The notes: generated by a model not told the origin, from the letters alone. DNA of 64,000 bases from Dethiobacteria bacterium (GCA_050942615.1 JBMNNQ010000002.1:19722-83721), one strand, 5' to 3'; shown: positions 1-62,949, counted from the first letter of the stretch. Made by a program: numbers and translations.

Positions 1-2
1 TA

Positions 3-1295
3 CAGCTGGAGATCGTTGCTGCACAGGATCGGCTTGCGGGGGTCACTATGGCATCTGAACTGGAAGAACTAATTACAAGGATTTGCACCGGGGCATTGGT
101 GGCAGGCCACCGGGCCGATCTGGTAATGACGGCTTGTGCCCGTACATTGGCGGCCTTTTATGGCCGACTGAAGGTTAATGAAAGTGATATTCATGAGGCT
201 GCTGCTTACGTTCTTCCCCACCGCAGGCGCGAAGCATCCCCCCCACAACAAGAACAGGAGCCGCCGGAACCTGAAAGGCCCGATAAACCTGAAGAATCTG
301 ATAAGCTGGAAAGTGAACAGGAACGGGAGCGGGCCCGGGAACAGCAGGCTGTGCAGTCCCACGAACAGCCGGAGGATCGGAAAAACGAACAGGAAAAAAA
401 AGAAGAACAGGACCAGCACCCCCAGGAAGCTGCTCCCTCCGGTACGCCTGAAATTGTTTTTGCAGTGGGTGAGCCTTTTCCCGTACGGCGGCTTAGTTAT
501 AAGGTGAAAGGTGTGTTACGCAGAGGTTCCGGCAGGCGGTCACGCGGCCGGACTGCTACAAAGTCAGGACGTTATGTGCGCAGCACCATGCGTTGGGAAA
601 GGCAGGATTTAGCGTTTGACGCTACCCTGCGCGCCGCTGCTCCCTACCAACAGAGCCGTGAACGTGATGGGGTTACCGTTGTTATAGAGCGGGGTGATCT
701 GCGCGAAAAAGTGCGGGAAAAAAGGGTGGGCAACTTCCTTCTATTTGTTGTCGATGCCAGCGGTTCCATGGGGGCCCGGCAGCGGATGGTGGAGGCAAAA
801 GGGGCCATCCTTTCCCTGCTTCTAGATGCCTACCAAAAGCGTGACAGGGTGGGCATGGTGGCCTTTCGTGGCGAACAGGCAGAAGTTATTCTGCCTCCCA
901 CCAACAGTGTGGAACGAGCGCAAAGACTGCTGGAGGATCTTCCCACCGGGGGCCGGACACCTCTTTCCGCCGGGCTGCTTAAATCACATGAAGTGGCCAA
1001 AACACATCTTTTTAAAGACCCGGATATCAGGCCGCTGTTGATTGTTATTTCCGACGGCAAGGCCAATGTCAGTATGGGAAAAGAGAGGCCGCTGGCAGAA
1101 GTTGCCCATGCTGCCGGGATTATCAGGGAGGAAGAACAGGTTAAAAGCCTGGTGGTTGATGTGGAAAACAGCGGCCTCCTTTCATTTGGGTTGGCCCAAC
1201 AGCTTGCTGCAATGTTGGATGCAGAGTACTTCAAATTAGATGATCTGAAGGCGGATCGTCTTGTGGAGGCTGTTCACAGTGTTCTTGATGTGTAA
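3..1295 (+). CDS. chlD: Mg-chelatase subunit D-like protein (AAA lid - acidic Pro/Glu-rich linker - vWA/MIDAS domain); 5' end lies upstream of window
   Basis: Reading frame is open back to nt 3 (no stop), so the ORF is 5'-truncated by the window edge. N-term segment ...[42 protein letters not shown] matches the C-terminal lid of the ChlD/BchD AAA+ module. A poly-acidic/Pro linker ([22 protein letters not shown]...) follows. The vWA domain has an intact MIDAS motif (VVDASGSM). Confidence 0.8.
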
Positions 1296-1297
1296 AA

Positions 1298-2431
1298 GTG
1301 TTCTGGCAGTGGGGATTTTTGGGGCAGGTGCGCCAAAAGGGTTATTCTAGATTAATAGTGGAGAAAGGGTTGGTAACAGTGGAACAAACAATAGGGCAGG
1401 CTGTAAGGTATATTTACCCCTTTACCGCGCTGGTGGGACAGGATGACATGAAACTGGCTCTCATTCTTAACGCCATCAACCCCAAGCTGGCCGGGGTTTT
1501 GATTCGCGGGGAAAAAGGGACTGCCAAATCGACTGCGGTGCGTGCCTTGGCGGTGCTATTGCCGGACAACCAGGTTGTGAGCGGGTGTCCCTTTGGGTGT
1601 GACCCGGAAGATATTACTACCATGTGCAGTTCTTGCAGGGAACAGCTGCAAAAAGGCAAAAAACCGGATAAGGCGATCTGCAAGATGCGGGTTGTTGAAC
1701 TGCCTGTTTCCGCCACCGAGGATCGTGTGGTAGGCACCCTTGACCTGGAAGAAGCCATTAAAAAAGGGGAAAAACGCTTTGAACCCGGGGTGTTGGCAGA
1801 GGCCAACCGGGGCATTCTTTACATGGATGAGGTCAACCTTTTGGATGATCATATCGTTGATGTTTTGTTGGACTCAGCGGCAATGGGTGTCAATACGGTG
1901 GAGCGCGAAGGTGTGTCCTTTACCCATCCGGCAAATTTCATGCTTGTGGGAACTATGAACCCTGAAGAAGGAGAGCTGCGGCCACAACTTTTAGATCGGT
2001 TTGGTTTGTGTGTACAAATTGAAGGGATCCTTGATCCTGTGCAACGGGTAGAGGTCATCCGCAGGCGGGTTGCTTTTGAAGAAGACCCTGCCGCTTTTTG
2101 TTCTGCATGGGAACCGGAACAAGAAAAACTGCGCCAACAGATATTGGCAGCAAAACAAACACTGCCTAAAGTACAGGTGCCCGAAGAAATGCTCTACCTG
2201 ATTGCTGAAATAGCGGTGGAGATGGGTGTGGACGGCCACCGTGCCGATTTGATTATGATGAAGGCCGCAAAAACCAGGGCTGCATTACAGGGGCGTGAAA
2301 AAGTAAGTAAAGAAGATATTAATGATACTGCAGATTTGGCTCTTATGCACAGAATGAGGCGTAAACCCTTCCAGGATCTGACCCTGGATCAACAGAAACT
2401 AAAGGAAATTGTGGGGGGTCCCCTTGATTGA
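1298..2431 (+). CDS. chlI: Mg-chelatase subunit I-like AAA+ ATPase (ChlI/BchI family)
   Basis: Walker A (GEKGTAKST), Walker B ([20 protein letters not shown]) and sensor/arginine-finger regions ([16 protein letters not shown]) run almost colinear with cyanobacterial ChlI. A cysteine-rich insert ([17 protein letters not shown]) sits in the loop after Walker A. The start codon is uncertain: ATG 1298 or a nearby GTG. Confidence 0.85.
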
Positions 2432-3263
2432 ACTGGAAGGCCTTTGTAAAGACTACAATGGAGTTAAAGCCATTGACAGCCTGGATTTAAAAGTGGAGGC
2501 AGGGGAAATATTTGGTTTGTTGGGGCCCAACGGTGCAGGAAAAACAACTGCAATACGAATTTTGACAACATTGGCACGCCCAACAGCGGGAAAAGTATTT
2601 ATTAACGGTAAAGAGGTGTCCCGCAACAAAGCAGGCATTAAAAGTGAAATCGGTGTTGTTTCACAAACAGAAAATTTGGACAGGCAGATGACGGCACGGG
2701 AAAACTTAGAGCTGCATGGCCGCCTCTTTAAGGTTCCCGCTTTAAAACGCCGTGCCCGGATTGAAAAACTGCTTGCTTTTGTAGATTTAACGGCACGCGC
2801 TCATACAGCTGTAGAATATTTTTCCGGGGGCATGAAAAGACGTCTGATGATTGCCCGTGCCCTGGTGCATGAACCCCGTCTCCTTTTCCTGGATGAACCA
2901 ACGGTGGGCCTGGATCCCCAGGTGCGCCGCAAGATATGGGATCTGATCAGGAATTTAAACGGCCAGGGGATTACAGTTTTACTGACTACCCACTATATTG
3001 AGGAAGCAGAATTGCTTTGCCATCGTGTGGGGATTATGAACAAAGGCCAATTAATTGCCCTGGGGACACCCGCGGATTTGAAAGCCCGGGTAGGTGATAC
3101 AGTTGTAGAGGTGCCTTATAACAGCGAAACAAAGTACCTAGTATTTGAAAACAGGGAAAAAGGATTGCAACACGCGGCAACATTAAAGGAAAATTTAGTA
3201 ATTAGGGAAAGCAGTTTAGAGGATGTATTTGTGGAACTGACCGGTCATAAAGTGGGTGTTTAA
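2424..3263 (+). CDS. ABC-2-type transporter ATP-binding protein
   Basis: Walker [10 protein letters not shown], signature FSGGMKRRL, Walker [13 protein letters not shown]. The start overlaps the stop of the ChlI-like gene; ATG 2409 and TTG 2424 are both candidates. Confidence 0.8.
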
Positions 3264-4002
3264 AATGCTCCATGATACATATACGGTTTTTTGGCGGGAA
3301 ATGGTCTTATTGCGCAAAAAGTTTAAGAGTTTTTTCGCGGGCAGCATGGTCAGCCCCCTGCTCTACCTGCTGTCTTTCGGATGGGGTTTGGGGAGAAACA
3401 TCCAGCTTGACAGTACAAGCTATCTGGATTTTGTGGTGCCCGGTATTGTTGCCCTCAGCGCAATGAATGCCAGTTATAGCGGCACAGGCACTTCCCTGAA
3501 CGTCAGCCGCCTTTATTATAAAACCCTGGAGGAATTTTTGGTGGCACCGATCAGTGTTGTTTCCTTGGTTTTAGGGAACGTTTTCAGCGGGTGCTTCCGG
3601 GGTCTTTTTTCAGCGGGGCTTATCATTATTTTTTCCTATTTTTTTGGGGCGAACCTCTGTCTTAGCGGGTGGTTTTTTGTGTCCTTGCTATTAACCTGTT
3701 TCTTGTTCGCCACCTTGGGCCTGGTGGCGGCAATGATTGTCAGCAGCCATGAAGGTATGTCCCGTTTTGGAACCTTTGTAATCCTGCCCATGACTTTTTT
3801 ATGTGGGACTTTTTTCAAGGTGGAAAATTATCCGGGTATCATAGCGTGGTTCGTAAAAATGTTGCCGCTTACGCATTCTTCTATTTCCTTACGGGCTCTA
3901 GCCATGAATACAGAGTTTCCTTTAGTTTCCCTGCTGGTAATGACAGCCTATGCCCTGATTTTGTTTATCCTGGGTGTATGGGTAACTTACCGGGTGGAAT
4001 AA
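3256..4002 (+). CDS. ABC-2-type transporter permease
   Basis: A 248-aa polytopic membrane protein with six predicted TM stretches. It is translationally coupled to the upstream ATPase by an ATGA-type overlap at 3256. Confidence 0.7.
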   Translation: MFKMLHDTYTVFWREMVLLRKKFKSFFAGSMVSPLLYLLSFGWGLGRNIQLDSTSYLDFVVPGIVALSAMNASYSGTGTSLNVSRLYYKTLEEFLVAPISVVSLVLGNVFSGCFRGLFSAGLIIIFSYFFGANLCLSGWFFVSLLLTCFLFATLGLVAAMIVSSHEGMSRFGTFVILPMTFLCGTFFKVENYPGIIAWFVKMLPLTHSSISLRALAMNTEFPLVSLLVMTAYALILFILGVWVTYRVE

Positions 4003-4042
4003 GGCCGGTATTGCCCGGGCAACTAAATAACTATGCCGGGAG

Positions 4043-5161
4043 TTGATCGTGTTGAACGTTCCTACAACTGTAGAAAAGGCTGTCAGCAGCACAAAATTTG
4101 AAGAAATATACCAACATTCTGTAGCACGAAAATTAACTATAATCTTTGTGTTGTCGGTTTCGCTTGTTTTGACAGCACTGGTGGCTACAGCGATCGGTGT
4201 AGCCGGGATTACCGTGCATGATGTCGCCAGCGTAATTTTAGGAAAAATAATACCGGGCCTGCAACTGCCAACGGCCAGCGATCTGGCAGAAATAATAGTG
4301 ATCGAATTCAGGCTTCCCCGGATTTTTTTGGCAATGCTGGCCGGGTTCAGTTTGGCAGGTGCCGGGGCTGTTAAACAAGGCGTTCTGCGCAACCCGTTGG
4401 TATCACCCTTTACCCTGGGAATCTCTGCCGGCGCATCTTTAGGGGCAGCCATAGCAATTGTATTGGGTAAAAGCGTTCTGGGAAGTTCCTACCTTGCAGC
4501 GGGAAAGTACCTGATTGTTTTCAATGCTTTTCTTTTTGGCATGATTACCATGTTATTGATTTATGGCATAGCAAAGGTAAAAGGTGCAGTCCCCGAAACC
4601 CTGATCCTGGCAGGGGTAGCGTTGGGCTATCTTTTTCAGGCAGGCGTTTCTGCGCTAAAATATTTTTCTGACAACGATGCCTTAAAAGATCTCGTCGTCT
4701 GGTTGATGGGCGGTTTCTGGGGGGCCAATTGGGATGCTGTTGTTATTCTTTTACCCATTGTTTCGCTCTGTTTAATCCTTTTGGGCCGCTTTACCTGGGA
4801 TCTCAACGCCCTGGGAGCAGGTGAAGAAGTGGCTGTGAGCTTAGGTATCAATGTAGACAGGTTAAGGTTGATGACCCTGATCCTGGCAACCTTTATGGCT
4901 TCAAGCACTATTGCCTTTACGGGGATCATAGGTTTTATCGGGTTGGTTTCCCCGCATGTCTGCCGCTTCATTATCGGATCTGACAACAGGTTTTTGTTGC
5001 CTGCTTCTGCCCTGACAGGGGCCATTTTGCTTTTGCTTGCTGATACCCTGGCAAGGATTGTACTTGCACCTGTAGAACTGCCTGTAGGGATCCTGACGTC
5101 TTTAATCGGTGCTCCTTTCTTTCTTTACCTTTTGCTTAAAAAGAAGCGCCAGTATTGGTAA
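4043..5161 (+). CDS. FecCD/BtuC-family ABC importer permease (iron-chelate/corrinoid/heme type)
   Basis: FecCD hallmark motifs: RLPRIFLAMLAGFSLAGAGAVKQGVLRNPLVSPFTLGISAGASLG and C-terminal GAPFFLYLL. Confidence 0.85.
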   Translation: MIVLNVPTTVEKAVSSTKFEEIYQHSVARKLTIIFVLSVSLVLTALVATAIGVAGITVHDVASVILGKIIPGLQLPTASDLAEIIVIEFRLPRIFLAMLAGFSLAGAGAVKQGVLRNPLVSPFTLGISAGASLGAAIAIVLGKSVLGSSYLAAGKYLIVFNAFLFGMITMLLIYGIAKVKGAVPETLILAGVALGYLFQAGVSALKYFSDNDALKDLVVWLMGGFWGANWDAVVILLPIVSLCLILLGRFTWDLNALGAGEEVAVSLGINVDRLRLMTLILATFMASSTIAFTGIIGFIGLVSPHVCRFIIGSDNRFLLPASALTGAILLLLADTLARIVLAPVELPVGILTSLIGAPFFLYLLLKKKRQYW

Positions 5162-5264
5162 AAATATTCCCCAGTCTATTTTGGAAAATATGATTAATAT
5201 GTACTGTAATAAAAAGTGCAGGGAATTCAGGCAAAATGAATTGAAATAAAGGGAGCGATTGCAA

Positions 5265-6083
5265 GTGATGCTGAAGGTGCGGGGGGTTTGTTTCCGTTAT
5301 GGGAATATGGAGGCCTTAAGGGACGTTGAACTAGAGGCGAAATCGGGCGAGGTGTTGGCTGTAATCGGTGCAAACGGCTCGGGTAAAAGCACTTTGATTC
5401 GCTGCATCAACAAGATCCTGAAACCGTATACAGGAACGATTTATCTGAATGGGAGGAAAATTTGCAGTTTTAGTCCGAAAGAACGTGCTTGCATGATGGG
5501 TTATGTTCCCCAAGCAGTGAGGGATGTTTTTTCATATAACGTTATGGAAATGGTGATGATGGGGCGCAAACCGTATATAAACTACGGTGTCGGGAAAAAA
5601 GACCTTAAAATAGTAAGCTCGGTGTTGTCGCGTTTGGGGCTGATGCAATTCATGGAACGTTATTTGTACGAATTAAGCGGCGGTGAAAGGCAGAAAGTGT
5701 TAATTGCCCGGGCCCTGGCCCAGGAACCGGAGGTGTTGTGCCTGGATGAACCGACAAGTAACTTGGATGTCAGGCATCAATTAGAAGTCATGGAACTGGT
5801 CCGGGATATTGCAAAACAGCAGAAAAAATGTGTTTTAATAGTTATTCATGATCTGAACCTGGCGGCCCGTTTTGCAGATAAGATTTTAATGCTTAAAGAG
5901 GGCCGGGTCTATGCAGCAGGATTGCCGGGGGACGTTTTGATCCCCGAAAACATCAAGGCCGTTTACGGGGTTGATTCTATGATTGTTCATACCGAACTGG
6001 GTCCATATGTCCTCACTATAAAATCAAGCAAACCAGAGGAAATACCGGTGGTTGGTGAACTTCAGGGGGTGGCAGGATCATAA
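5265..6083 (+). CDS. ABC importer ATP-binding protein (FecE/BtuD type)
   Basis: Walker A GANGSGKST, signature LSGGERQKV, Walker B VLCLDEPTSNLD and H-loop IHDLN. RBS AAAGGGAG lies 9-12 nt upstream of GTG 5265 / ATG 5268. Confidence 0.85.
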   Translation: MMLKVRGVCFRYGNMEALRDVELEAKSGEVLAVIGANGSGKSTLIRCINKILKPYTGTIYLNGRKICSFSPKERACMMGYVPQAVRDVFSYNVMEMVMMGRKPYINYGVGKKDLKIVSSVLSRLGLMQFMERYLYELSGGERQKVLIARALAQEPEVLCLDEPTSNLDVRHQLEVMELVRDIAKQQKKCVLIVIHDLNLAARFADKILMLKEGRVYAAGLPGDVLIPENIKAVYGVDSMIVHTELGPYVLTIKSSKPEEIPVVGELQGVAGS

Positions 6084-6194
6084 AAGGGAATGATTTTTTC
6101 AAGGCAGGAAACACCGATCAAATGGTCAGTTGCGGTTATTATAAACGGGATAAACGTATCAATCATTTAAAAAAAACTAGCAGGGGGCTTTAGA

Positions 6195-7301
6195 ATGAGG
6201 TTGGCCAAATTTTTAATTCCGCCGTTAATTTTTATTCTGATAGGATGTATGTTGGCGGTTACAGGCTGTGGGAATCGTGGTACAGTAGTAGAACCTGAAG
6301 GTAAGCCGGAAAGTAAATATATTACTATTACAGATTGTACCGGCAGAAATATAGAGGTGCCACAACCCTTGGAAAGGGTTGTTGTTTTTAATAGTTGGGT
6401 AGCTGAAGCCTTTAGAATTTTAGACGTTCAAGATAAAGTAATTGGGGTTGACGAAGGCGTTCAAAAACATCCCTACCTTAATATGCAGGATAAAGACATC
6501 GCTGGGGGCACATCCCAGCCCAATCATGAAAGGATCGTTGAATTAAAACCACAGGTTGTTTTTTGTATTAGTGGTACAGGCAGTGCTAGGACCGGAAAGG
6601 AACTGGCCGATAAACTAGAACCTTTAGGGATTAAAACTGTGATCCTAGATTTTCATAAGCCCGACGAATACAATGATGATTTAAAAATACTTGCAACCAT
6701 GTTTGGTGAAGAAAAAAAGGCCGGGGATTTTATTACGTGGAAAACTGCACAGGAAAAAAAGTTAGCGGATCGGTTAAAAGGTTTTAAACAGGAAGAGCGG
6801 AAAAAGGTCTTTCAAATTTGGGAAAGTGGAATACCCAAAAATGAATGGGGAACTTCCTCAAAAGGGGATAAAATCGGAGGTACAGGACCGGACCAGGAAA
6901 TAAACCTGGCCGGGGGCATCAATATTGCAAAGGACCTGGCAGAAGCCTATCCCGTAGTAATCGGGGAATGGGTGCTCCAACAAAACCCGGATACTGTATT
7001 AATTTCAACAAGCAAGGTCCTTGGTTATACTACTGCAGACTATAATGACGCTTCTGAATTAAGGGATTTGGTATTGAAAAACAAGGTTTTTGCTAATCTA
7101 GATTTTGTAGAAAATGAGCAGGTATTTGTAATTCGTGGATATGGCAATAATCCTTATATTAATGCACAGTTTCTTGCAAAATGGTTGTATCCCGAACGTT
7201 TTGAAGATGTCGACCCCGCAGAGGCATTGCAAGAATACTTTGAAAGATGGTTGGGTGTACCATTTCAGGGCAAATGGGCCTATCCGCTTGTGTCTAATTA
7301 A
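6195..7301 (+). CDS. Periplasmic-binding-protein lipoprotein (FecB/BtuF fold, PBP paralog 1)
   Basis: Signal peptide with lipobox (LAVTGC). Motifs VPQPLERVVV, ELKPQVV and LAKWLYPERFEDVDP..ALQEYFERWLGVPFQGKWAYP are shared with the two downstream paralogs. Confidence 0.8.
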   Translation: MRLAKFLIPPLIFILIGCMLAVTGCGNRGTVVEPEGKPESKYITITDCTGRNIEVPQPLERVVVFNSWVAEAFRILDVQDKVIGVDEGVQKHPYLNMQDKDIAGGTSQPNHERIVELKPQVVFCISGTGSARTGKELADKLEPLGIKTVILDFHKPDEYNDDLKILATMFGEEKKAGDFITWKTAQEKKLADRLKGFKQEERKKVFQIWESGIPKNEWGTSSKGDKIGGTGPDQEINLAGGINIAKDLAEAYPVVIGEWVLQQNPDTVLISTSKVLGYTTADYNDASELRDLVLKNKVFANLDFVENEQVFVIRGYGNNPYINAQFLAKWLYPERFEDVDPAEALQEYFERWLGVPFQGKWAYPLVSN

Positions 7302-7344
7302 GGAGCGCAGGCCCGGGAAGATCAGAAATAGGAGGACTTTTTTT

Positions 7345-10300
7345 ATGACTAAAATCACCGCTATTTTATGGCAGAACCATGTTACAACGATGCGTGAGGC
7401 AGGGAAGCTGCTTAAAAACCGGTATGCTCTACAGGTCTATTCGGCCCGTTATTTGGACGAGGGCAAAGAGGATCTGGTTTCTGCAAGGGATGATCTGGCT
7501 GATTCAGATCTGATCCTTTTATACAGATCAGCGGGCGAAGCCGTTTGGGATGAACTGGAAATGGAAGTTAAACGGCTTGGCAAACCGGTGGTTTGTTTGG
7601 GGCACGATCCGATGCTTTGGTTGCTGTCCAGTGTGCCCCTGGAGATCGTTGATAAATGCAACACCTACGTGGTTTACGGTGGTGCCGATAATTTTGCTCA
7701 GATGTTAAACTGCCTGGTGGCAGAGGTACTGGGCTTACAGGTTGACTATGAGGAACCCTTCGCCCACCCTTGGGAGGGGATCTATCATCCCCGGGCACCC
7801 CATTATTTTGATAACCTGGAGGACTACTTAAATTGGTACAAACCCCGCAAGGCGCCGACTATTGGCCTTCTGCTGGCACGGGGTTATTGGGTAAACGACA
7901 ATATAGCTGTGGAGAAACTTTTGATCGAACTTTTTGAGGCACAGGGCTATAATGTTATCCCTGCTTTTTGTTATTCTGTAAAAGATGCAGAGTTAGGTAC
8001 CAGGGGTTCTGCCGGTGTAGTTCAGGATTTCTTTTTTGATCGCGAGGGCCGGCCTGTTATCAAGGCCATGGTTAAGCTAATTTCTTTCTTTCTAGAATCC
8101 AGTAGGGTCACAGGTGTTCATGAGGAAAATGTGGCTGCAGCGGGGGTCGATTTGCTGAAAAAGTTGGATGTTCCTGTTTTCCAGCCTGTTGTTTCCTATC
8201 ATCGCACTATAGAGGAATGGACGGCAGATCCCCAGGGGTTAAGTAACGAAATTTCTTGGTCGATCTCTATGCCGGAGTTTGAAGGGGTTATTGAACCCCT
8301 TTATATCGGGGGTATAGGCGGGGAGAACGACCTGGAGTACAGGGATCCCCAGCCAGAACGCTGCCGGCACCTGGTAGACAGGGTGCACAGCTGGCTCCGT
8401 TTGGCTGAAAAACCGACTGCGGAACGCAGGGTAGCTTTTATTTTACACAACAACCCCTGTGCTTCAGTGGAAGCTACTGTAGGGGGTGGTGCCAACCTGG
8501 ACACCCTGGAAAGTGTGGCCCGGGTTTTGCAGCAGATGCAACAAAAAGGCTACGCTGTGAATATTCCCGCAGACGGTAGGGAATTAATTGACAACATAAT
8601 GGATCATAAGGCTGTTTCTGAATTCCGCTGGACCACCACAGACGAAATTGTCAGCAAAGGCGGGGCGTTGAAGTTGGTCCCGGTGGAAGAATATTGCGCC
8701 TGGTTTGATACCCTTTCTTCGCATGTCAGAAAACGGGTTACAGATGCCTGGGGTAAGCCTCCGGGGGAAGAACTGAACGGGGTGCCGGCTGCCATGGTCT
8801 ACGCAGGAAAGATTCTGGTTACCGGCGTGCAATACGGCCAGGCGGTGATCTGTGTCCAGCCTAAACGCGGTTGTGCAGGCCCTAAGTGTGATGGCCGGGT
8901 CTGTAAAATATTGCATGACCCCGACATTCCCCCGCCACACCAGTATATGGCTACTTACCGCTATATCGAACATGACTTTAAAGCAGATGTGATCATACAC
9001 GTGGGCACCCACGGCAACCTGGAATTTCTGCCGGGCAAGGGCGCCGGGCTTTCCCAAGATTGTTATCCTGATTTGGGGATAGGTGAAATACCGCACCTTT
9101 ACATCTATAATGCTGACAACCCGCCGGAGGGAGTGATTGCCAAGAGAAGAAGCTATGCTGCGCTGGTAGACCATATGCAGACGGTGATGACTGAAAGCGG
9201 CCTTTATGCTGAACTGGCAGAATTGGACCGTTACCTGGAGGAGTACGAAAAAGCCAAAGTGGCAGATCCCACCCGGGCACACCTGCTGGAACACATGATA
9301 ATTGAGGAAATCAAAAAGACAAATTTAGACAAACAGATCCCCGTAGCAGGAGGGCATGAAAATATAACTGAAATTATTGAAGAAGCCCACGGCATCCTTT
9401 CTTCTGTCCGCAACACCCGGATTCAAGACGGTATGCATGTTTTCGGCCAGCTGCCGGAGGGAGAACAAAGGGTATCTTTCATAAATTCCATACTGCGTTT
9501 TGACGCCGGCCAGGATGTTTCCCTACGCCGCAGCATTGCCGCCCTAATGGGCCTTGATCTGTCAGCCTTAATCACCAATCAGAACAGCATTTCCCTTCAA
9601 TATGGAAAATCCCATGGTGCTCTTCTGGAAGAAATAGATTTGGCCGGTAAAGAATTTATTAAATACTTTCTCCAAGGGGAAAAAGTAAGCCCTGCCTTAG
9701 CCCATGAAGTTTTGGGTGATAGATTTTACCGTCCCCAGGCTCTGCCTTTACTCCATGAGGTTTTGCCCAGGGTGCTGGATCTGAATGAAAGGATAGAGGC
9801 TTCCCGGGAAATCGAAGCCCTTCTGAGTGGGTTCCAGGGCAGCTATATCCCGGCCGGTCCCTCCGGCCTGATTACCCGCGGCAGAGATGACGTTTTGCCC
9901 ACGGGCCGTAATTTTTATTCTTTAGACCCCCACCGGGTACCCACCAAAGCTGCCTGGGAGGTAGGTAAACGCCTGGCAGATAAGGTACTGGCCAAGCACC
10001 TGACAGAAGAAAACAGGTATCCTGAAAATATCGCCCTTTACTGGATGTGCACGGATATTATGTGGGCGGACGGGGAGGGTTTAGGCCAAATGCTTTACCT
10101 GTTGGGTGTCAAGCCCAAATGGCTGCCCAATGGCAGGGTGGCAGGGGTTGAAGTCATTCCCCCGGAGGAATTGGGGCGGCCGCGCATTGACCTCACTATC
10201 AGGGTTTCCGGGATTACCAGGGATATGTTTTGTAACTGTGTGGAACTGTTGGATGAAGCGATCAGCACAGTAGCCGCACTGGACGAACCCGTGGAACAAA

Positions 10301-11199
10301 ATTATGTGCGTAAACATACCCTTGCCCAGCTTGACGGCAAGCAAGACCAAGAGTCCTGGCGGGAGGCCACTTTGCGTATTTTTGCTGCCAAACCCGGCAC
10401 CTATTCTTCAGGGGTAAAATTAGCGGTTTATGCTGCGGCCTGGAAAGAAGAAAAAGATTTAGCAGATGTTTTCCTCTTTTGGAACGGCTACGCTTACGGC
10501 AAAGATGTTTATGGCCGGGAAGCCTTTAAACAGCTGCAATCAAGTTTAAGCACTGTGGATGTCACCTACAACAAAGTAGTTACTGATGAAAGTGATCTTT
10601 TTAGCTGCTGTTGCTACTTCGGTACCCATGGAGGCCTGACTGCTGCAGCCAGGGCCGCCTCCGGCAAAGACGTCAGGGTTTACTACGGGGATACCAGGGA
10701 ACCGGAACATGTAGAAGTAAGAACTTTGGCTGATGAAGTACGGCGTATAGTAAGAACAAAATTGCTCAACCCCAAGTGGATTGAAGGCCAGAAAAGGCAC
10801 GGCTATAAAGGAGCGGGTGATATTTCTAAAAGGATAGGGCGCGTTTATGGTTGGGAGGCTACCACCCGGGAGGTGGATGACTGGATCTTTGATGATATCA
10901 CCAGAACCTTTGTTTTAGACGAAGAAAACCGCAAATTTTTTGAGGAACATAACCCCTGGGCGATGGAGGAAATAGCCCGCCGTCTGTTAGAGGCCTACCA
11001 GCGCGGACTCTGGGATGCAGATCTGGAGGTGATCGATGGCCTAAAAGAATATTATCTGGATATTGAGGGTTGGATCGAAGAAAAAATGGGCGAAGTGCAG
11101 GGCGATTTCCAGGGAGGTGCTGTAGACATATTCACTCATGAAGAAGTGGCTGACTGGGGTGCCAAGATGCAGGAAATAAAAGAAAAATTAAAAAGTTAA
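7345..11199 (+). CDS. cobN: CobN/ChlH-family chelatase large subunit
   Basis: A 1285-aa protein (MTKITAILWQNHVTT...) with RBS AGGAGG 8 nt upstream of ATG 7345. The frame also includes an upstream ATG at 7135, so the ORF as drawn is longer. Conserved CobN/ChlH blocks are present (HVGTHGNLEFLPGK; RPRIDLTIRVSGITRDMF; YGDTREPEHVEVRTLADE). Confidence 0.85.
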   Translation: MTKITAILWQNHVTTMREAGKLLKNRYALQVYSARYLDEGKEDLVSARDDLADSDLILLYRSAGEAVWDELEMEVKRLGKPVVCLGHDPMLWLLSSVPLEIVDKCNTYVVYGGADNFAQMLNCLVAEVLGLQVDYEEPFAHPWEGIYHPRAPHYFDNLEDYLNWYKPRKAPTIGLLLARGYWVNDNIAVEKLLIELFEAQGYNVIPAFCYSVKDAELGTRGSAGVVQDFFFDREGRPVIKAMVKLISFFLESSRVTGVHEENVAAAGVDLLKKLDVPVFQPVVSYHRTIEEWTADPQGLSNEISWSISMPEFEGVIEPLYIGGIGGENDLEYRDPQPERCRHLVDRVHSWLRLAEKPTAERRVAFILHNNPCASVEATVGGGANLDTLESVARVLQQMQQKGYAVNIPADGRELIDNIMDHKAVSEFRWTTTDEIVSKGGALKLVPVEEYCAWFDTLSSHVRKRVTDAWGKPPGEELNGVPAAMVYAGKILVTGVQYGQAVICVQPKRGCAGPKCDGRVCKILHDPDIPPPHQYMATYRYIEHDFKADVIIHVGTHGNLEFLPGKGAGLSQDCYPDLGIGEIPHLYIYNADNPPEGVIAKRRSYAALVDHMQTVMTESGLYAELAELDRYLEEYEKAKVADPTRAHLLEHMIIEEIKKTNLDKQIPVAGGHENITEIIEEAHGILSSVRNTRIQDGMHVFGQLPEGEQRVSFINSILRFDAGQDVSLRRSIAALMGLDLSALITNQNSISLQYGKSHGALLEEIDLAGKEFIKYFLQGEKVSPALAHEVLGDRFYRPQALPLLHEVLPRVLDLNERIEASREIEALLSGFQGSYIPAGPSGLITRGRDDVLPTGRNFYSLDPHRVPTKAAWEVGKRLADKVLAKHLTEENRYPENIALYWMCTDIMWADGEGLGQMLYLLGVKPKWLPNGRVAGVEVIPPEELGRPRIDLTIRVSGITRDMFCNCVELLDEAISTVAALDEPVEQNYVRKHTLAQLDGKQDQESWREATLRIFAAKPGTYSSGVKLAVYAAAWKEEKDLADVFLFWNGYAYGKDVYGREAFKQLQSSLSTVDVTYNKVVTDESDLFSCCCYFGTHGGLTAAARAASGKDVRVYYGDTREPEHVEVRTLADEVRRIVRTKLLNPKWIEGQKRHGYKGAGDISKRIGRVYGWEATTREVDDWIFDDITRTFVLDEENRKFFEEHNPWAMEEIARRLLEAYQRGLWDADLEVIDGLKEYYLDIEGWIEEKMGEVQGDFQGGAVDIFTHEEVADWGAKMQEIKEKLKS

Positions 11200-11273
11200 G
11201 TGATGCTGCCCTGAGGGGTTCAAGCTATGATGTGTATAGGGAAAACGGGGGACTGAAAGGGGTGGATAATAAA

Positions 11274-12368
11274 TTGAGATTTAAAAAACATATAGCTTTC
11301 ACTCTACTATGTCTTTGGGGATGCTTTTTGCTGGCGGCCGGCTGTGGGGAGGGCGGTTCTCATCTAGAATCCGGAGGCAAACCTGGTAATGAATCTGTTA
11401 CTATTACTGATTCTGCCGGCAGAAGTGTGGTTGTGCCCCAGCCTTTGGAAAGGGCGGTTGTTTTATATACCGGTATGGCGGAAGCGGTGAATATAATAAA
11501 GGCGCAGGATAAGGTTGTCGGTGTAGATATGAGTGTACAAACGCACCCCTACTTAGGTATGCAAAATAAAGTATCGGTGGGGGAAAGTACGCAGCCCAAC
11601 TATGAAAGAATTGCTGAGCTCAGGCCGCAAGCAGTTGTTGTGCCGGCTAGTATCGGCCCCATCCCTGTTCAGGAAATAACCGAAAAACTGGAACCGGCAG
11701 GGATCAGGGTTGTGCTTTTGGATATTCACAAACCGGAAACAAGCGAAGATGCCCTAAAAATATTGGCCAAAATCTTTGCAAAAGAAAAAGAAGCGGCAGA
11801 ATTTTTAAAATGGAAGGCTGCACAAATAGCAATATTAGACAAGGTAAACAGCTTGCAGGCAGAACAAAAAACAAGTGTTTTTACCACAACTACAACGAAT
11901 TTTGAACTTGAAAAATGGAATACTTCAGGCACCGGTCTGGCTGCACACCAGACAATTGAATTGGCCGGCGGAATTAACGCGGCCCGGGAACTGCAAGGTT
12001 CGGTTTCCGTGAGTCCGGAATGGATTTTGGAACAAAACCCCGGCGCCCTGGTTTTTAATGACCGTGCAGACAACATTGTGGGTTTTACAGTGAAGGATTT
12101 TGAAAAGGCAGAACAATTTAAAGCAAAGGTAGAGGCTCATTCAATATTTAGCAATACAGCTGCTGCACAAGAAAGCCGGATCTGCATTATTGATAACAGT
12201 ATTTTTAGCGGTGACAAATCCTTCCTGGGGGCGCTCTACTTGGCCAAGTGGCTGTACCCCGATCAGTTCCGGGACGTGGATCCCAACGCAGCTTTGCAAG
12301 AGTACTTTGAAAGATGGGTGGGCATAACTTTTCAGGGGCTATGGATCTATCCATCTACATCAGAATAG
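11274..12368 (+). CDS. Periplasmic-binding-protein lipoprotein (PBP paralog 2)
   Basis: Lipobox LLAAGCG. Motifs VPQPLERAVV, ELRPQAVV and LAKWLYPDQFRDVDPNAALQEYFERWVGITFQGLWIYP. The start is uncertain: ATG 11232 or TTG 11274 with GGGGTGG upstream. Confidence 0.75.
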   Translation: MRFKKHIAFTLLCLWGCFLLAAGCGEGGSHLESGGKPGNESVTITDSAGRSVVVPQPLERAVVLYTGMAEAVNIIKAQDKVVGVDMSVQTHPYLGMQNKVSVGESTQPNYERIAELRPQAVVVPASIGPIPVQEITEKLEPAGIRVVLLDIHKPETSEDALKILAKIFAKEKEAAEFLKWKAAQIAILDKVNSLQAEQKTSVFTTTTTNFELEKWNTSGTGLAAHQTIELAGGINAARELQGSVSVSPEWILEQNPGALVFNDRADNIVGFTVKDFEKAEQFKAKVEAHSIFSNTAAAQESRICIIDNSIFSGDKSFLGALYLAKWLYPDQFRDVDPNAALQEYFERWVGITFQGLWIYPSTSE

Positions 12369-12430
12369 AAAAAGCTGAAACTGCCTTGGTTTCTGAAAAC
12401 TGTTTAAGTATTTTTAGGAAAGGATAATTA

Positions 12431-13507
12431 ATGATGTCAAGAAAAAATTTATTTTTCGTCTTGTTCTGCATGCTGTGTTGTTTAACAGCGTTAACGCCCG
12501 GTTGTGGCCAAAGTGAATCTCAAATAGGGCCGGGGGTTAAGCCCGTTGTGATTGTTGATTCGGCGGGCAGGAGCGTGGAACTGCCCCAGCCTTTGGAAAA
12601 GGTAGTTATTCTTAACACCGATGTGGCTGAAGCTATGCGTATTTTAAAGGTTCATCACAACGTTTTAGGTGTTAGCGATACCATTCAAAAGGATCCTTAT
12701 CTTGGTTTGCAGGACAGGGATTTTATAGGGAAATGGAACACCCCCAACTATGAAAAAATCGTTGAATTAAAGCCACAGGTTGTTGTCTCTTATAGTGGAA
12801 CACCCGGTCTGGAATTAGCAGAAAAATTAGAGCCAGCCGGGATAAAGGTGGTTTTTTTAGATTTATTTAAACCTGAAACATATAATGATGATCTTAAAAC
12901 TTTGGGTAAAATGTTTGGGAAAGAAGAAGAAGCAAATTCATTTATCAAGTGGAAAGATGAAAAAATAGTGATGTTGGAACGGTTAAATGATTTAAAAACA
13001 GAACAAAAACCAAAGGTTTTTGGGATGTGGGCCAGTAACTTTCAAAAAGAACAGTGGAAGACCTTTGCTACAGGCACTTCCGTACACCAGGGTATCGAAA
13101 TGGCGGGTGGAATTAATATAGCACGTAAAATGGAAAATTACCCTGAAGTTAGCCCGGAATGGATCTTGCAGCAAGACCCGCATGTAGTTATTATGGCCCT
13201 GGCCGAAAAAAACGACTTAGGCTATAAGGCGACAAATCTATCCAGCGCTGAAGGACTACAAGAAGACATTGTTAACCATAAGGTTTTTAACAAAACAACG
13301 GCTGCCAGAGAAAAACGGGTATATTTTGTTAGCACCAGCATGCTGGGCGGTGATAAAACATATCTGGGGGCGCTGTACCTGGCCAAATGGTTCTACCCGG
13401 ACCGGTTTATGGATGTGGAGCCCGATCAGGTTTTGCAAGAATACTTTGAAACGTGGTTGGACGTACCTTTTCAGGGTAAATGGGCCTTTCCCCCGGTATT
13501 AGATTAG
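12431..13507 (+). CDS. Periplasmic-binding-protein lipoprotein (PBP paralog 3)
   Basis: RBS AGGAAAGGA precedes ATG 12431. Lipobox LTPGCGQ. Motifs LPQPLEKVVI, ELKPQVVV and LAKWFYPDRFMDVEPDQVLQEYFETWLDVPFQGKWAFP. Confidence 0.8.
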   Translation: MMSRKNLFFVLFCMLCCLTALTPGCGQSESQIGPGVKPVVIVDSAGRSVELPQPLEKVVILNTDVAEAMRILKVHHNVLGVSDTIQKDPYLGLQDRDFIGKWNTPNYEKIVELKPQVVVSYSGTPGLELAEKLEPAGIKVVFLDLFKPETYNDDLKTLGKMFGKEEEANSFIKWKDEKIVMLERLNDLKTEQKPKVFGMWASNFQKEQWKTFATGTSVHQGIEMAGGINIARKMENYPEVSPEWILQQDPHVVIMALAEKNDLGYKATNLSSAEGLQEDIVNHKVFNKTTAAREKRVYFVSTSMLGGDKTYLGALYLAKWFYPDRFMDVEPDQVLQEYFETWLDVPFQGKWAFPPVLD

Positions 13508-13649
13508 GATGGCATCCCTTTTGGGCACACTGGATCAAAATCAGGAAATATTTAAAAAAATATAATTTTAAAAACCCCCTTGCGCATTCTTGTGATATGT
13601 TGTAAAATAGGCCATAACAAATGAATATAAAAAAGCTTTGAAGGAGAAA

Positions 13650-13948
13650 AGTAGATTGGGGTACTTCCTGCAGAAAGGCGGGGGCCAAAGGCTGTGAGCC
13701 CCCCCGGAAGGAGCCAGTTGAAGTTCACTCCGGAGCTTCCGTTTGAAATCCCTGCAGGGAGAGTAGGGCGCTGACGGGTTCTCACCCGTTATCCCAGAGG
13801 AGGAATAAGACCTCCATGTCTGCTGTAATTAACGGCAGGTCAGGAATTTGTTCCTTAATGCCAAGAGGGCCGTGTGCCGATAGGCACCGGTCAAATAGGG
13901 TGGTACCGCGGAAGATAATTCGCCCCTTAAGGGGGCGATTTTTATTTT
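13650..13948 (+). promoter_or_regulatory. T-box leader (tRNA-sensing riboswitch) with antiterminator/terminator
   Basis: Canonical T-box sequence AATAGGGTGGTACCGCGG at 13894-13911. It builds the antiterminator GGG-[UGGUACC bulge]-GCG..CGC-CCC. The competing terminator is CGCCCC-UUAA-GGGGGCG plus a U-run (13921-13948). Upstream: an F-box CCGUUA (13786-13791), a GNUGA box GCUGA (13770-13774), GAGAGUA (13759-13765) and a stem III hairpin GUGCC/GGCAC (13873-13888). The 5' boundary and the specifier codon cannot be fixed by eye. Confidence 0.75.
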
Positions 13949-25346: not shown

Positions 25347-26168
25347 TTAGGATCCCCCCGCGGCAGCCTGTTTTGATTTTTCCAGGGAATAGTTGACTGT
25401 TACTTCCTCATCGGGGAAAGGAACTATGACCGGGATGCCCATAATTTCTACAATGTGCACATGCATTTCGTAGACTGCCTCTATGTTTTCAGGGGTCATG
25501 ACCTCCAACCCGCCATAGGAATAGACGAAAGAGTCCTTGAGGAATAAGAAACGGTCACAGTAGCGGATGGCTAGGTTGAGGTCGTGAATAACGATCGCCA
25601 CAGAGATATTGTGTTCCCGGGCAATTAACTTTACGGTGCGCAGCACTTCATGCTGGTTGCGTGGGTCAAGGTTGCTGGTGGGTTCGTCAAGCAGTAACAG
25701 CTTTGGTTCCTGGGCCAGCGCCCGGGCAAGCATCACCTTTTGTATTTCCCCGCCGGAAAGCTTGGCTACATTGCGCAGGGCAAAGTCTTCCAGCTGCATT
25801 TTTTGGATGATCTCGCGCACAATTTGCCGGTCTTCTGCCGTGGCATCCCATTTAATATACGGTTTGCGGCCTAAAAGGATGGCATCAAAAACGGTCATGT
25901 GCAATGACTTATTATCTTGTGCGACATAAGAAATGTTTTGGGCCATCACGTTTCTGGACATATTATACACGTTTTGCCCGTCAACCAGGACGACACCTTT
26001 CTGGGCGGGGCAGATGCGGTTGATACATTTAATCAACGTGCTTTTGCCCGCCCCATTGTTGCCCAGGATGGCAATGCATTGGCTTTTTTGGATATCAAAG
26101 CTGACATCCTCCAGTACATTGCTTGTACCCTGGTTATAGGTGAAAGTAAGTTCATCAATTTTAACCAT
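25347..26168 (-). CDS. ABC importer ATP-binding protein (FecE-like)
   Basis: GNNGAGKST, LSGGEIQKV, LLLLDEPTSNLD, IHDLN. Start taken at MVKIDELTF (ATG 26168), overlapping the permease stop. Confidence 0.85.
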   Translation of the reverse strand: MVKIDELTFTYNQGTSNVLEDVSFDIQKSQCIAILGNNGAGKSTLIKCINRICPAQKGVVLVDGQNVYNMSRNVMAQNISYVAQDNKSLHMTVFDAILLGRKPYIKWDATAEDRQIVREIIQKMQLEDFALRNVAKLSGGEIQKVMLARALAQEPKLLLLDEPTSNLDPRNQHEVLRTVKLIAREHNISVAIVIHDLNLAIRYCDRFLFLKDSFVYSYGGLEVMTPENIEAVYEMHVHIVEIMGIPVIVPFPDEEVTVNYSLEKSKQAAAGGS

Positions 26169-62643: not shown

Positions 62644-62949
62644 AACAGCATAGGAACAGCCTTCAGGACGTCAGGCTGTATAGTAACTACCTTTGAAAAT
62701 TGTATGATATCCTTGCTGAAGGATACTAATGTTAACGTCTTCCGGAAGAGAAATCTGGGCCCGCACCGGGGTTCTATTACTATTTCAGGAAGTATATACT
62801 GACCAAACGATTTTTCCGGTTGCCGGCAGGTATTGTCACCCTGTTTTTTAAAAAAGGGTGGCAAAATTTTTAGGCTTATGGTAGTATAATATTGCACTCT
62901 AAAGACAGGGTTGCTGGTTCTTTGCAGCATGTTAAAAAGTGAATATGGT

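Follow-up and report, generated by a model that had tools for sequence, protein, structure and literature searches.

A complete set of class I chelatase subunits (ChlI, ChlD and a CobN-family large subunit) is physically embedded among transport genes in an anaerobic Firmicute, a Dethiobacteria bacterium, as an earlier, sequence-only reading of this DNA had proposed. The ten genes occupy positions 1-13507 of the 64,000-nt stretch analyzed here (the window), where genes for binding proteins (PBPs), a FecCD permease and an ABC-2 pair are interleaved with those of the chelatase. Active-site substitutions set the large subunit apart, the gene association is conserved across phyla, and a B12 riboswitch is missing upstream. 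Our explanation is tentative, and we give it somewhat less than an even chance: the cluster may couple chelate import to ATP-driven transfer of a thiophilic metal (likely nickel) and to ligand export, under NikR-type control, in order to scavenge metal.

Organization of the gene array

Gene families were assigned using Pfam and NCBIfam profiles. The ten co-directional genes that had been described from the sequence alone were all recovered on the + strand, with boundaries shifted by a few bases at most:

up to 1295 (5' end upstream of the window), + strand: chlD, 3' two-thirds; AAA_lid_2 and VWA (Pfam)
1298-2431, + strand: chlI, AAA+ motor subunit; Mg_chelatase/AAA_5, TIGR02030 444 bits
2409-3263, + strand: ABC-2 ATPase, DrrA/NodI-like subfamily; TIGR01188 317.6 bits, cutoff 312.45
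3256-4002, + strand: ABC-2 permease; PF01061 (L001 gene call starts at window 3265)
4043-5161, + strand: FecCD/BtuC-family permease of a type II ABC importer; PF01032, E 3.9e-90
5259-6083, + strand: FecE/BtuD/HmuV-type importer ATPase (L001 gene call starts at window 5268)
6195-7301, + strand: PBP1, Peripla_BP_2 lipoprotein; PF01497, lipobox LAVTGC
7345-11199, + strand: CobN-family large subunit, "CCC type", 1284 aa; PF02514 1296 bits, full length
11232-12368, + strand: PBP2, Peripla_BP_2 lipoprotein; PF01497, lipobox LLAAGC
12431-13507, + strand: PBP3, Peripla_BP_2 lipoprotein; PF01497, lipobox LTPGC

An identical-protein contig (L001) provided the missing 5' end of chlD (full gene at L001 7941/8025-9998). 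Full-length ChlD has 657-685 aa and comprises an AAA+ N-domain, an AAA lid, a Pro/Glu-rich acidic linker and a VWA domain with the MIDAS motif DASGS. ChlI has the Walker A motif GEKGTAKS and a 4-Cys insert (GCPFGCDP...CSSC). The host assignment is supported by a 100% identical protein whose name gives its source as a "Dethiobacteria bacterium" MAG.

The gaps between the ten genes range from -23 to +111 nt, and no terminator was found within the array (1-13507) that would split off the transporter genes as a separate transcription unit. The only convincing + strand terminator (13920-13938) is part of a T-box leader 3' of PBP3. We infer that the ten genes work together as a unit, probably a single operon. 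A meaningless adjacency, in which the chelatase and both transporters would be unrelated units that merely happen to be neighbors, is extremely unlikely: weak promoter-like matches do occur inside the array, but the genes are tightly spaced or overlapping, and many phyla show the same association in a rearranged gene order.

Conservation of the chelatase-transporter association

Close relatives of the CobN-family subunit (55-86% identity) were present in at least 558 species-level genomes, the carriers being Bacillota, Desulfobacterota, Nitrospirota, Fibrobacter, methanogens and ANME. Thermoanaerobacter kivui, Desulfofundulus kuznetsovii, Syntrophaceticus schinkii and Clostridium ragsdalei are among the carriers available in culture. 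At 64 CobN-orthologue loci, each flanked by 8 kb or more, a transporter gene adjoined CobN in 55 (86%), with PBPs found at 63%, FecCD permeases at 59%, ChlI/ChlD at 63% and the ABC-2 pair at 53%. Given that the same gene kinds recur across phyla in shuffled order, selection appears to act on the association itself rather than synteny having been inherited, and the co-location of chelatase and transporter is not due to chance. A horizontally mobile cluster, widespread in strict anaerobes, is the best explanation.

The commonest extra neighbor was a TonB-dependent-receptor-like family (17 loci, mostly Gram-negative MAGs), three members of which were confirmed by Pfam (L031, L042, L067). Pfam scans of the commonest neighbor families at 85 related loci gave transport-related or unknown families, and no corrin-ring (cbi/cob) biosynthesis family was seen near CobN.

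The large subunit and its predicted metal site

Alignment of the CobN-family subunit located the following features:

8851-8916, + strand: insertion CVQPKRGCAGPKCDGRVCKILH, with C503, C510, C515 and C520
9010-9012, + strand: H556 in the HVGTHG motif, equivalent of CobN H554 and HmuS H538
9127-9129, + strand: E595 in the NPPEG motif, equivalent of ChlH E660 and CobN E593
10606-10614, + strand: C1088-C1089-C1090, the CCC motif (sequence alignment)

The subunit shares with aerobic CobN-CobS-CobT (PDB 7c6o, 9uk9) a full-length PF02514 domain, a cytoplasmic location, AAA+ and VWA subunits as partners, and equivalents of H554 and E593. However, C1089 of its CCC motif aligns with D1100 of CobN, which a CobSTN cryo-EM preprint lists among the putative Co2+-site residues, and a three-Cys insertion is present in addition. 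Furthermore, its partners are of the ChlI/ChlD rather than the CobS/CobT type, the locus has no nearby cob genes, cobW or B12 riboswitch, and the host is a strict anaerobe. With Mg-chelatase (ChlH/BchH-ChlI-ChlD; PDB 4zhj) the window shares the ChlI/ChlD type (TIGR02030 444 bits, below the cutoff of 467) and the E660 equivalent, whereas ChlH H1174 aligns with a Cys (C1090) and D1177 with a Gly, and the window has no chlorophyll pathway genes. C1090 was matched to HmuS H1209 by hand alignment only.

The CCC motif was near-invariant, being kept in nearly all of ~80 bacterial and archaeal orthologues. Beside it, the three-Cys insertion is a feature of the clade. It serves as the marker of a wider "Cys-insert" group; neither canonical CobN nor HmuS-like sequences have it. 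The subunit scored far higher with NF004646 (NCBIfam CobN; 1940 bits, cutoff 1468) than with TIGR02025 (BchH; 839 bits, cutoff 829), and its best sequence match in the PDB was CobN (E 9e-185). HmuS showed the weakest PDB similarity of the three full-length classes (CobN, ChlH, HmuS), with a best-scoring stretch limited to the C-terminal third. Judged by these alignments, the large subunit represents a distinct clade that appears to be neither a bona fide cobaltochelatase nor HmuS; it does not cluster with bona fide aerobic CobN, from which the Cys at D1100 and the Cys insert separate it. In agreement with the earlier reading, no biochemical function has been reported for the clade, which the literature from 2011 to 2025 calls surprising or unclear.

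The profile scores bear on one alternative, namely a high-affinity anaerobic cobaltochelatase. Co2+ would then be placed by CobN/ChlI/ChlD into a corrin precursor, either made by the cell itself or salvaged. The enzyme would supplement or replace class II CbiK/CbiX when cobalt is scarce, and the cargo of the importer would be cobalt chelates or incomplete corrinoids. In addition to the NF004646 score, ChlI and ChlD both matched TIGR02442 ("putative cobaltochelatase") best, albeit below its cutoff. Carriers include many acetogens, syntrophic acetate oxidizers, sulfate reducers and methanogens, groups that rely on corrinoid-dependent acetyl-CoA-pathway metabolism. Moreover, the Thermacetogenium phaeum genome paper reported no CbiK/CbiX and proposed CobN and Mg-chelatase genes as a substitute, five M. 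acetivorans CobN homologues fall together with methylotrophic corrinoid proteins, and one array (L016) begins with a cobalamin riboswitch. Some loci, however, encode a second CobN paralogue upstream of chlD, with Asp at the D1100-equivalent position and without the Cys insert, and in L016 it is this Asp-type paralogue that lies directly behind the riboswitch. No cobalamin riboswitch was found at the window locus or at 15 other scanned loci with a visible cluster start, although the same window uses one before a BtuF-like gene 50 kb away. Together with the Asp-to-Cys replacement, the lack of cbi/cob neighbors at the 85 loci and the presence of CbiX in methanogens that carry the clade, these findings make a cobaltochelatase unlikely, albeit an alternative to be taken seriously.

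The importer and the comparison with heme systems

The importer resembles BtuCDF, FecBCDE, HmuTUV and NiuBDE in its FecCD permease, cognate ATPase and class III PBPs with paired docking glutamates, but differs from these in having three paralogous PBPs within one predicted operon. Across 104 CobN-linked PBPs, the permease-docking Glu pair was invariant and no conserved ligand-type His, Cys, Tyr or Met was found; the paralogues number 1 to 11. This combination fits the transport of related chelates. PBP1-3 share only 22-26% identity with the two other binding proteins of the window (a BtuF-like one and that of a minus-strand importer), and no ligand assignment was obtained from the nearest solved PBP relatives (4mo9, 9hrj, YiuA).

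The importer ATPase has a profile score near that required of heme ABC ATPases (NF010068 244.5 bits, cutoff 261), as might be expected if the system extracted iron from imported heme in the manner of HmuS/BtuS and the ABC-2 pair exported protoporphyrin. HmuS of Bacteroides/Porphyromonas (PDB 9d26) and BtuS1/BtuS2 are likewise CobN homologues from anaerobes, and release heme iron anaerobically. HmuS is also encoded beside uptake genes for a metal-tetrapyrrole, and its HxGTHG His is conserved in the window protein. MotA/ExbB, DUF2149 and TonB receptor genes occur in some clusters related to that of the window and, as far as these families go, recall hmu operons. In M. barkeri, CobN-like proteins differ between Fe/S sources. 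Nevertheless, HmuS is anchored in the membrane by terminal helices and works without ATP, whereas the window CobN, in which no signal peptide or hydrophobic segment was found, is soluble and accompanied by ChlI and ChlD. It also has CCC instead of the HmuS family motif LSLDHxxEFMGG and the Met79/His254 heme site. Considering in addition the weak similarity to HmuS, the lack of a significant Fur box upstream and the behavior of M. marburgensis CobN1 under Fe limitation (see below), we regard heme iron extraction as very improbable. The hmu locus, previously put forward as the nearest analogy, is only a loose one, since the window CobN lacks the anchor and the HmuS motif and has an AAA+ motor. 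The analogy is also out of date, HmuS now being characterized as a membrane-anchored, ATP-independent heme de-chelatase.

Upstream region and possible links to nickel

Regulation had been expected upstream of the window, in the form of a B12 element or a Fur-type box. In the ~0.7 kb of non-coding DNA upstream of chlD, neither a riboswitch (B12 or any other Rfam class) nor a significant Fur box was found; what this DNA does contain is a NikR-type inverted repeat, GTGTTAC-N13-aTAACAC, ~450 nt upstream of chlD. This was the only match with at most one mismatch in 1.5 Mb of loci to what we take to be the NikR-box consensus. The sole support for that consensus is a paper that reportedly mentions both "GTGTTAC" and "NikR". 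The box lies far from the chlD start codon. No enrichment of NikR-type boxes was found across all loci, and no nikR gene in the window. At L067, where the cluster starts with a TonB receptor gene, a perfect palindrome (GTGCTAC-N13-GTAGCAC; chance expectation 0.2 per 1.5 Mb) is located 33 nt ahead of that gene. At L031, nikR is found in the same orientation ~3.9 kb before the cluster begins, separated from it by an epimerase gene and a TonB receptor gene. In Methanosarcina loci, CobN is followed by genes for CbiQ and for a double CbiO-like ATPase. These hints are indirect, and each is weak when taken singly; the cluster may concern nickel rather than vitamin B12. Running counter to a nickel reading are the L016 riboswitch link and the name CobN that NCBIfam gives the clade (NF004646).

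Methanothermobacter marburgensis, also a strict anaerobe, offers two points of comparison, the MTBMA_c10530-c10580 locus and a CobN homologue of the same size (CobN1, 143 kDa; D9PVN3) that likewise lacks a cob context. CobN1 was up ~300-fold only under Ni limitation, without a rise under Fe limitation, and was co-induced with a ChlD-like protein (~5-8-fold) and a transporter locus enclosing "cobaltochelatase subunit-like" genes (~40- to 300-fold) (PMC12350162). As no Methanobacteriales sequence was among the best 120 matches of three sequence searches, CobN1 is probably a more distant paralogue within the Cys-insert group.

This proteome would also suit an ATP-driven Ni-inserting chelatase. 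Where class II CfbA is outcompeted for nickel, such an enzyme would, under Ni limitation, produce a Ni-tetrapyrrole (e.g., the Ni-sirohydrochlorin needed for F430) from nickel supplied by the transporters. Methanogen CobN/ChlID homologues were proposed in earlier work to be nickel chelatases, some loci carry CbiQ/CbiO-like modules and NikR elements, and a thiolate-rich site is suited to Ni2+, all of which point in the same direction. The clade is, however, equally common in bacteria without known Ni-tetrapyrrole synthesis, including this Firmicute, and F430 metalation is already accounted for by CfbA. Moreover, the presence of TonB receptors and of several chelate-type PBPs is more in keeping with import of a large ligand than of a free ion. 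We consider nickel insertion of this kind improbable.

Proposed function of the cluster

In the chelate-import and metal-transfer scheme that we tentatively prefer, the three surface lipoprotein PBPs would bind a set of related metal-macrocycle or metal-chelate complexes and pass them to the type II ABC importer (FecCD permease and ATPase). In the cytoplasm, the CCC-type CobN, driven by the ChlI/ChlD AAA+ motor, would work on the imported complexes, ATP being spent on moving a thiophilic metal between the macrocycle and a putative thiolate-lined site (H556, E595, C1088-1090). The ABC-2 pair would expel spent or unwanted ligand. The metal would most likely be nickel, under nickel-limitation (NikR-type) control, and the most likely purpose trace-metal scavenging in sulfidic habitats. 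What we infer here is which metal and substrate are involved, whether the metal is removed or inserted, and what the exporter carries. The sequence-only reading had named heme, a corrinoid or a precursor; the evidence leans weakly to nickel, with cobalt second. Its proposal, in which the chelatase would metallate or de-metallate a macrocycle after import and the ABC-2 pair would export a product, is consistent with our data. Within the CobN superfamily, HmuS provides a precedent for de-chelation. Against the scheme stand the facts that this one known de-chelatase needs no ATP, that to our knowledge all AAA+-motor class I enzymes characterized insert metal, and that we know of no Ni-tetrapyrrole in bacteria.

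Organization of the chelatase cluster

ORF listing, translation and Pfam/NCBIfam scans placed ten genes on the + strand between positions 1 and 13507 of the window, and thereby confirmed the gene content claimed by the sequence-only reading:

1.. (+): chlD, 3' part, encoding the AAA lid, acidic linker and VWA domain (Pfam/NCBIfam)
1298-2431 (+): chlI
2409-3263 (+): ABC-2 ATPase, DrrA-type
..4002 (+): ABC-2 permease
4043-5161 (+): FecCD permease
..6083 (+): FecE/BtuD-type ATPase
6195-7301 (+): Peripla_BP_2 binding protein
7345-11199 (+): CobN-family protein, 1284 aa
11232-12368 (+): Peripla_BP_2 binding protein
12431-13507 (+): Peripla_BP_2 binding protein

Spacing within the cluster ranges from a 23-nt overlap to a 111-nt gap, and no intergenic terminators were found inside the ten-gene array. 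The next unit begins at a T-box leader (13629-13930, +; 105 bits; terminator at 13920-13938), which precedes an AMP-binding/acyl-CoA-synthetase-like gene (14118-15701); such a gene is not a usual T-box target.

The 5' end of chlD was supplied by L001, a public contig that encodes an identical ChlI protein and extends 10 kb further upstream. The full-length chlD on this contig encodes 657-685 aa, including an intact AAA+ N-domain, and is preceded by approximately 0.7 kb of non-coding DNA. The next gene, kamA-like and divergently oriented, resembles radical-SAM lysine-2,3-aminomutase genes (L001 5608-6849, -) and has a c-di-AMP (ydaO-type) riboswitch as its leader (L001 7105-7250, -; ~1.4 kb before window position 1). 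A CobN protein 100% identical to that of the window has been deposited as a 'Dethiobacteria bacterium' MAG, and the closest cultured relative is that of Syntrophaceticus schinkii (86%).

As regards subunit composition, the proposal of a complete class I chelatase was borne out by the presence of a PF02514 large subunit, an AAA+ ChlI and a ChlD comprising an AAA+ N-domain, an acidic linker and a VWA domain with a DASGS MIDAS motif. The Walker A sequence GEKGTAKS is found in both ChlI and ChlD. Each of these proteins also carries a 4-Cys insert, GCPFGCDP...CSSC in ChlI (window 1298-2431) and GCVYRCDP...CVDC in the AAA+ N-domain of ChlD (L001 7941-8400), which could be a zinc-ribbon-like or redox element.

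Family placement of the large subunit

The window CobN matched PF02514 with 1296 bits over profile positions 2-1088 of 1090, and retains the class I active-site His (HxGTHG) and Glu as H556 and E595. In sub-region alignments, H556 corresponds to CobN H554 and HmuS H538, and E595 to ChlH E660 and CobN E593. These features assign the protein to the class I (ATP-dependent) tetrapyrrole chelatase superfamily. Amongst the family models, the curated CobN HMM TIGR02257 scored 808.2 bits, under its cutoff of 822.05, NF004646, which is also named CobN, scored 1939.8 (cutoff 1468), and the BchH model TIGR02025 was marginally over its cutoff of 829 with 839 bits. The order of similarity to PDB entries was M. 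tuberculosis CobN (E = 9e-185), ChlH (7e-162), a second CobN (3e-150) and HmuS (3e-110), the best-scoring aligned stretch of HmuS being C-terminal, with the N-terminal region outside it.

The residues of the metal site are where the window protein departs from each of these families. When compared with CobNST, it keeps the equivalents of H554 and E593 but has C1089 at the position of D1100, one of the putative Co2+-site residues listed in a CobSTN cryo-EM preprint; its partners are moreover of the ChlI/ChlD rather than the CobS/CobT type. When compared with ChlH/BchH, the E660 equivalent is retained, but H1174 is replaced by C1090 and D1177 by G1093. HmuS/BtuS proteins carry the family motif LSLDHxxEFMGG with His-1209 and Glu-1212, in place of which the window CobN has FSCCCYFGTHGG in a hand-set register anchored on GG; H1209 aligns with C1090 in this hand alignment. 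The N- and C-terminal membrane anchors of HmuS/BtuS are likewise missing from the window CobN, which has no signal peptide and whose top 20-mer contains 13/20 hydrophobic residues. The suggested analogy with the hmu locus is only loose: the HxGTHG His is shared with HmuS, but the HmuS motif and the membrane anchors are not.

When 92 CobN ORFs of the related loci were aligned, the triplet CCC (C1088-C1090) was conserved in nearly all bacterial and archaeal orthologues. CCC orthologues also carry an insertion, KRGCAGxxCDGxVCKILH, with three invariant Cys and a frequent fourth, at a position that is gapped in M. tuberculosis CobN. In the window protein, the cysteines of this insertion are C503, C510, C515 and C520. 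When 1.84 billion cluster representatives were searched, the Cys insertion proved to mark a large, diverse group, of which the window's clade is the subgroup that combines CCC with the retained active-site His and Glu. Among the canonical CobN representatives, DSDD(Y/F) and HxGKHG are found instead, and among HmuS-like ones DLDHYYEF. Given the differences at the D1100, H1174 and HmuS-motif sites, together with CCC and the Cys insertion, the window protein belongs to the class I superfamily but lies outside the CobN, ChlH and HmuS families as defined by metal-site residues. The possibility that the large subunit is a bona fide CobN, raised at the outset as a challenge to the proposal, is countered by the D1100 to C1089 replacement and the ChlI/ChlD-type partners.

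Some loci encode a second CobN paralogue, 36-40% identical, which lacks the Cys insertion and has Asp at the D1100-equivalent position (D-S/C/G-D-D). This Asp-type paralogue lies upstream of the shared chlD/chlI in most of six loci (L015, L016, L017, L019, L074 and L077). In L016, it (1159-4923) directly follows a cobalamin riboswitch (658-857), an arrangement that suggests that two large subunits share one motor.

Further variants were observed. The clusters of Thermoanaerobacter kivui (L003 15335-17404) and Ammonifex (L006 19854-22154) are among a few that also encode MotA/ExbB, DUF2149 and a short protein of the CobN type (385-446 aa in these two), a trio that resembles hmu-type operons. 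Two database proteins are either real fusions or gene-call artefacts, i.e., P0428 (1890 aa), in which a ChlD-like VWA/AAA region is joined to CobN, and P0486 (1926 aa), in which a TonB-receptor Plug and barrel are joined to a CobN domain.

Transport genes

The FecCD permease, ATPase and class III binding protein with two docking Glu together identify the importer as type II (BtuCD-F class). The three binding proteins (PBP1-3) have lipoprotein signal sequences with lipoboxes and are 42-47% identical to each other, as against only 22-26% identity to the two other class III binding proteins of the window. Amongst 104 CobN-linked binding proteins, the docking residues E108 and E243 were invariant and no conserved metal- or heme-ligating residue was found; Methanothrix loci encode up to eleven PBP paralogues. 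This conservation pattern fits binding proteins that recognize a set of related chelates. The nearest PDB relatives (4mo9, 9hrj and YiuA 6b2x) gave no ligand assignment, and no publication on 9hrj was found in the literature searched.

The ABC-2 pair consists of a PF01061 permease and an ATPase that scored 317.6 bits against TIGR01188 (cutoff 312.45), with no binding protein of its own. It belongs to a DrrAB/NodIJ-like exporter family and, judged by that family, presumably works in the outward direction. No signal peptide or membrane segment was found in CobN, ChlI or ChlD, and the chemistry would therefore be cytoplasmic.

Two other transport systems were noted in the window. A second FecCD-type importer is encoded on the - strand (ATPase, 25347-26258; permease, 26161-27240; binding protein, 27240-28370). 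Furthermore, a BtuF-like lipoprotein gene (~63262 to the window end) lies behind a cobalamin riboswitch (62936-63121, +; 134 bits), which points to a conventional B12-regulated corrinoid importer apart from the CobN locus.

Distribution and gene neighborhood

Relatives of the window CobN with 55-86% identity were found in at least 558 species-representative genomes, including Bacillota, Desulfobacterota, Nitrospirota, Thermodesulfobacteria, a Fibrobacter MAG, Methanothrix, Methanosarcina, ANME, Methanoperedens and Methanococcales. Conservation of window-type CobN across phyla is unusually high. Every ORF in 85 related loci was classified against the window proteins, with percentages calculated from the 64 loci whose flanks reached 8 kb or more. 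Binding proteins were present in 63% of these, FecCD permeases in 59%, ChlI or ChlD in 63%, the ABC-2 pair in 53% and any transporter gene in 86%. The same kinds of genes recur around CobN in an order that differs between lineages, which argues for functional association. No cob/cbi families were detected among neighbors in the 85 loci, nor were corrin-ring, heme or chlorophyll biosynthesis families among the neighbors examined.

Additional recurrent neighbors included a TonB-dependent-receptor-like family in 17 mostly Gram-negative loci (three members Pfam-confirmed), a CbiQ gene with a double CbiO-like ATPase, PQQ_2 beta-propeller proteins and a Cu_amine_oxidN1 protein of 784 aa. In Clostridium sp. 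KNHs214 (L025), the CobN cluster is flanked by two TwoAYGGAY RNA motifs (2480-2634 and 17452-17606).

Regulation and candidate metals

A B12 riboswitch or Fur box had been suggested as a possible upstream control element. Neither was recovered: Rfam searches (gathering threshold; E up to 5) of the region before chlD yielded only the c-di-AMP riboswitch of the divergent gene, and the single Fur-box match, with three mismatches, was at chance level (0.65 expected). The strongest upstream inverted repeat was GTGTTAC-N13-aTAACAC (L001 7467-7493), a candidate NikR-type box with one mismatch, GTGTTACAATGTTTAAAATAATAACAC. We take the NikR operator to be of the type GTGTTAC-N13/14-GTAACAC, as in Rodionov's comparative studies. 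The heptamer and NikR occur together in PMC545781. With this assumed consensus, no other sequence in the 1.5 Mb of loci matched with at most one mismatch, which makes it unlikely that the box fell by chance inside one given 0.7-kb region. There was no enrichment across all loci (1 match vs. ~1 in shuffles), and it is the position of individual matches alone that is suggestive. No nikR gene is present within the window. In the Fibrobacter cluster, the TonB receptor gene at its head is preceded, at a distance of 33 nt, by a perfect palindromic variant; in a Nitrospirota cluster, a nikR gene is found ~3.9 kb upstream on the same strand; and Methanosarcina loci have in common a related motif before an ECF-type ATPase gene. 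A match in L025 was discarded, as a topoisomerase gene follows it.

Published proteomics give an independent hint of nickel. In Methanothermobacter marburgensis, the CobN homologue CobN1 (UniProt D9PVN3; 143 kDa) was up-regulated ~300-fold under Ni limitation only, and a ChlD-like protein 5-8-fold under Ni limitation (PMC12350162). Increases of ~40-fold and ~300-fold were recorded for MTBMA_c10530 and c10580, respectively (PMC12350162), between which lie three 'cobaltochelatase subunit-like' genes (PMC3087415). CobN1 probably belongs to the Cys-insert group as one of its more distant members; no Methanobacteriales were among the matches listed in the cluster-representative and homologue searches, for which queries included the Methanocaldococcus proteins P0130 and P0142. 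Nickel chelatase roles were once proposed for methanogen CobN homologues (Kaster et al.), and the T. kivui study noted nickel-transporter annotations adjoining such clusters.

Cobalt is indicated by the NCBIfam name of the clade, the L016 cobalamin riboswitch and the T. phaeum genome analysis, and also by the CobN homologues of M. acetivorans, which co-vary with corrinoid proteins. The text of a cobalt-starvation proteomics study of D. kuznetsovii makes no mention of the cluster. Overall, nickel is tentatively the leading candidate metal, at somewhat less than even chances, cobalt is a possible but less probable second, and heme iron is a distant third.

Proposed function

We propose that the cluster may serve to take up and process a thiophilic trace metal in the form of a macrocyclic chelate. 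The binding proteins and type II importer would take the complex into the cell, where the CCC-type CobN, driven by the ATP-using ChlI/ChlD motor, would pass the metal from the macrocycle to a His/Glu/Cys3 site or the other way round; the ligand would then be expelled by the ABC-2 pump. To our knowledge, every characterized enzyme with an AAA+ motor inserts metal. HmuS was demonstrated to be a heme de-chelatase in 2025, which shows that members of the CobN superfamily can remove metal, though HmuS has no need of ATP.

A more specific version, nickel piracy, is unlikely as a whole. Under Ni limitation, the cell would import Ni-tetrapyrroles from its surroundings, such as Ni-porphyrins or the F430, intact or degraded, of neighboring methanogens; a cytoplasmic ATP-driven de-chelatase with a Cys-lined metal site would strip the nickel, and the empty macrocycle would leave via the ABC-2 exporter. 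If true, the system would provide the first example both of an ATP-dependent de-chelatase and of a nickel-specific class I enzyme.

Neither the gene family nor its oddity is new. CobN in strict anaerobes has long been a puzzle, recorded for Desulfotomaculum, Desulforudis, T. kivui and methanogens, as well as in the 2025 HmuS paper, according to which many archaeal and other CobN-annotated homologues without cob genes have unclear functions. The T. kivui study also called the functions of such clusters unclear, and noted their apparent transfer from Desulfotomaculum/Desulforudis relatives. In the literature searched, we found no prior description of the metal-site Cys substitution, of a group marked by the Cys insertion, of a quantified tie to chelate transport or of regulatory hints for the cluster. 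The present analysis adds that Cys replaces the Asp of the CobN cobalt site in the window clade, that this clade is consistently linked to chelate transport and not to corrin synthesis, and the first hints of a nickel response. The question of how acetogens, syntrophs, sulfate reducers and methanogens acquire scarce thiophilic metals in sulfidic habitats thereby becomes testable. Databases call anaerobe CobN genes cobaltochelatase without experimental support, and if that name is wrong, genome-based calls of B12 makers are affected; one cited study reported that cobalt-chelatase annotations do not tell aerobic and anaerobic B12 pathways apart.

Finally, a multicopper-oxidase-like ORF (Cu-oxidase_2/3 domains) was observed at window 36640-38325 (-) in this presumed strict anaerobe.
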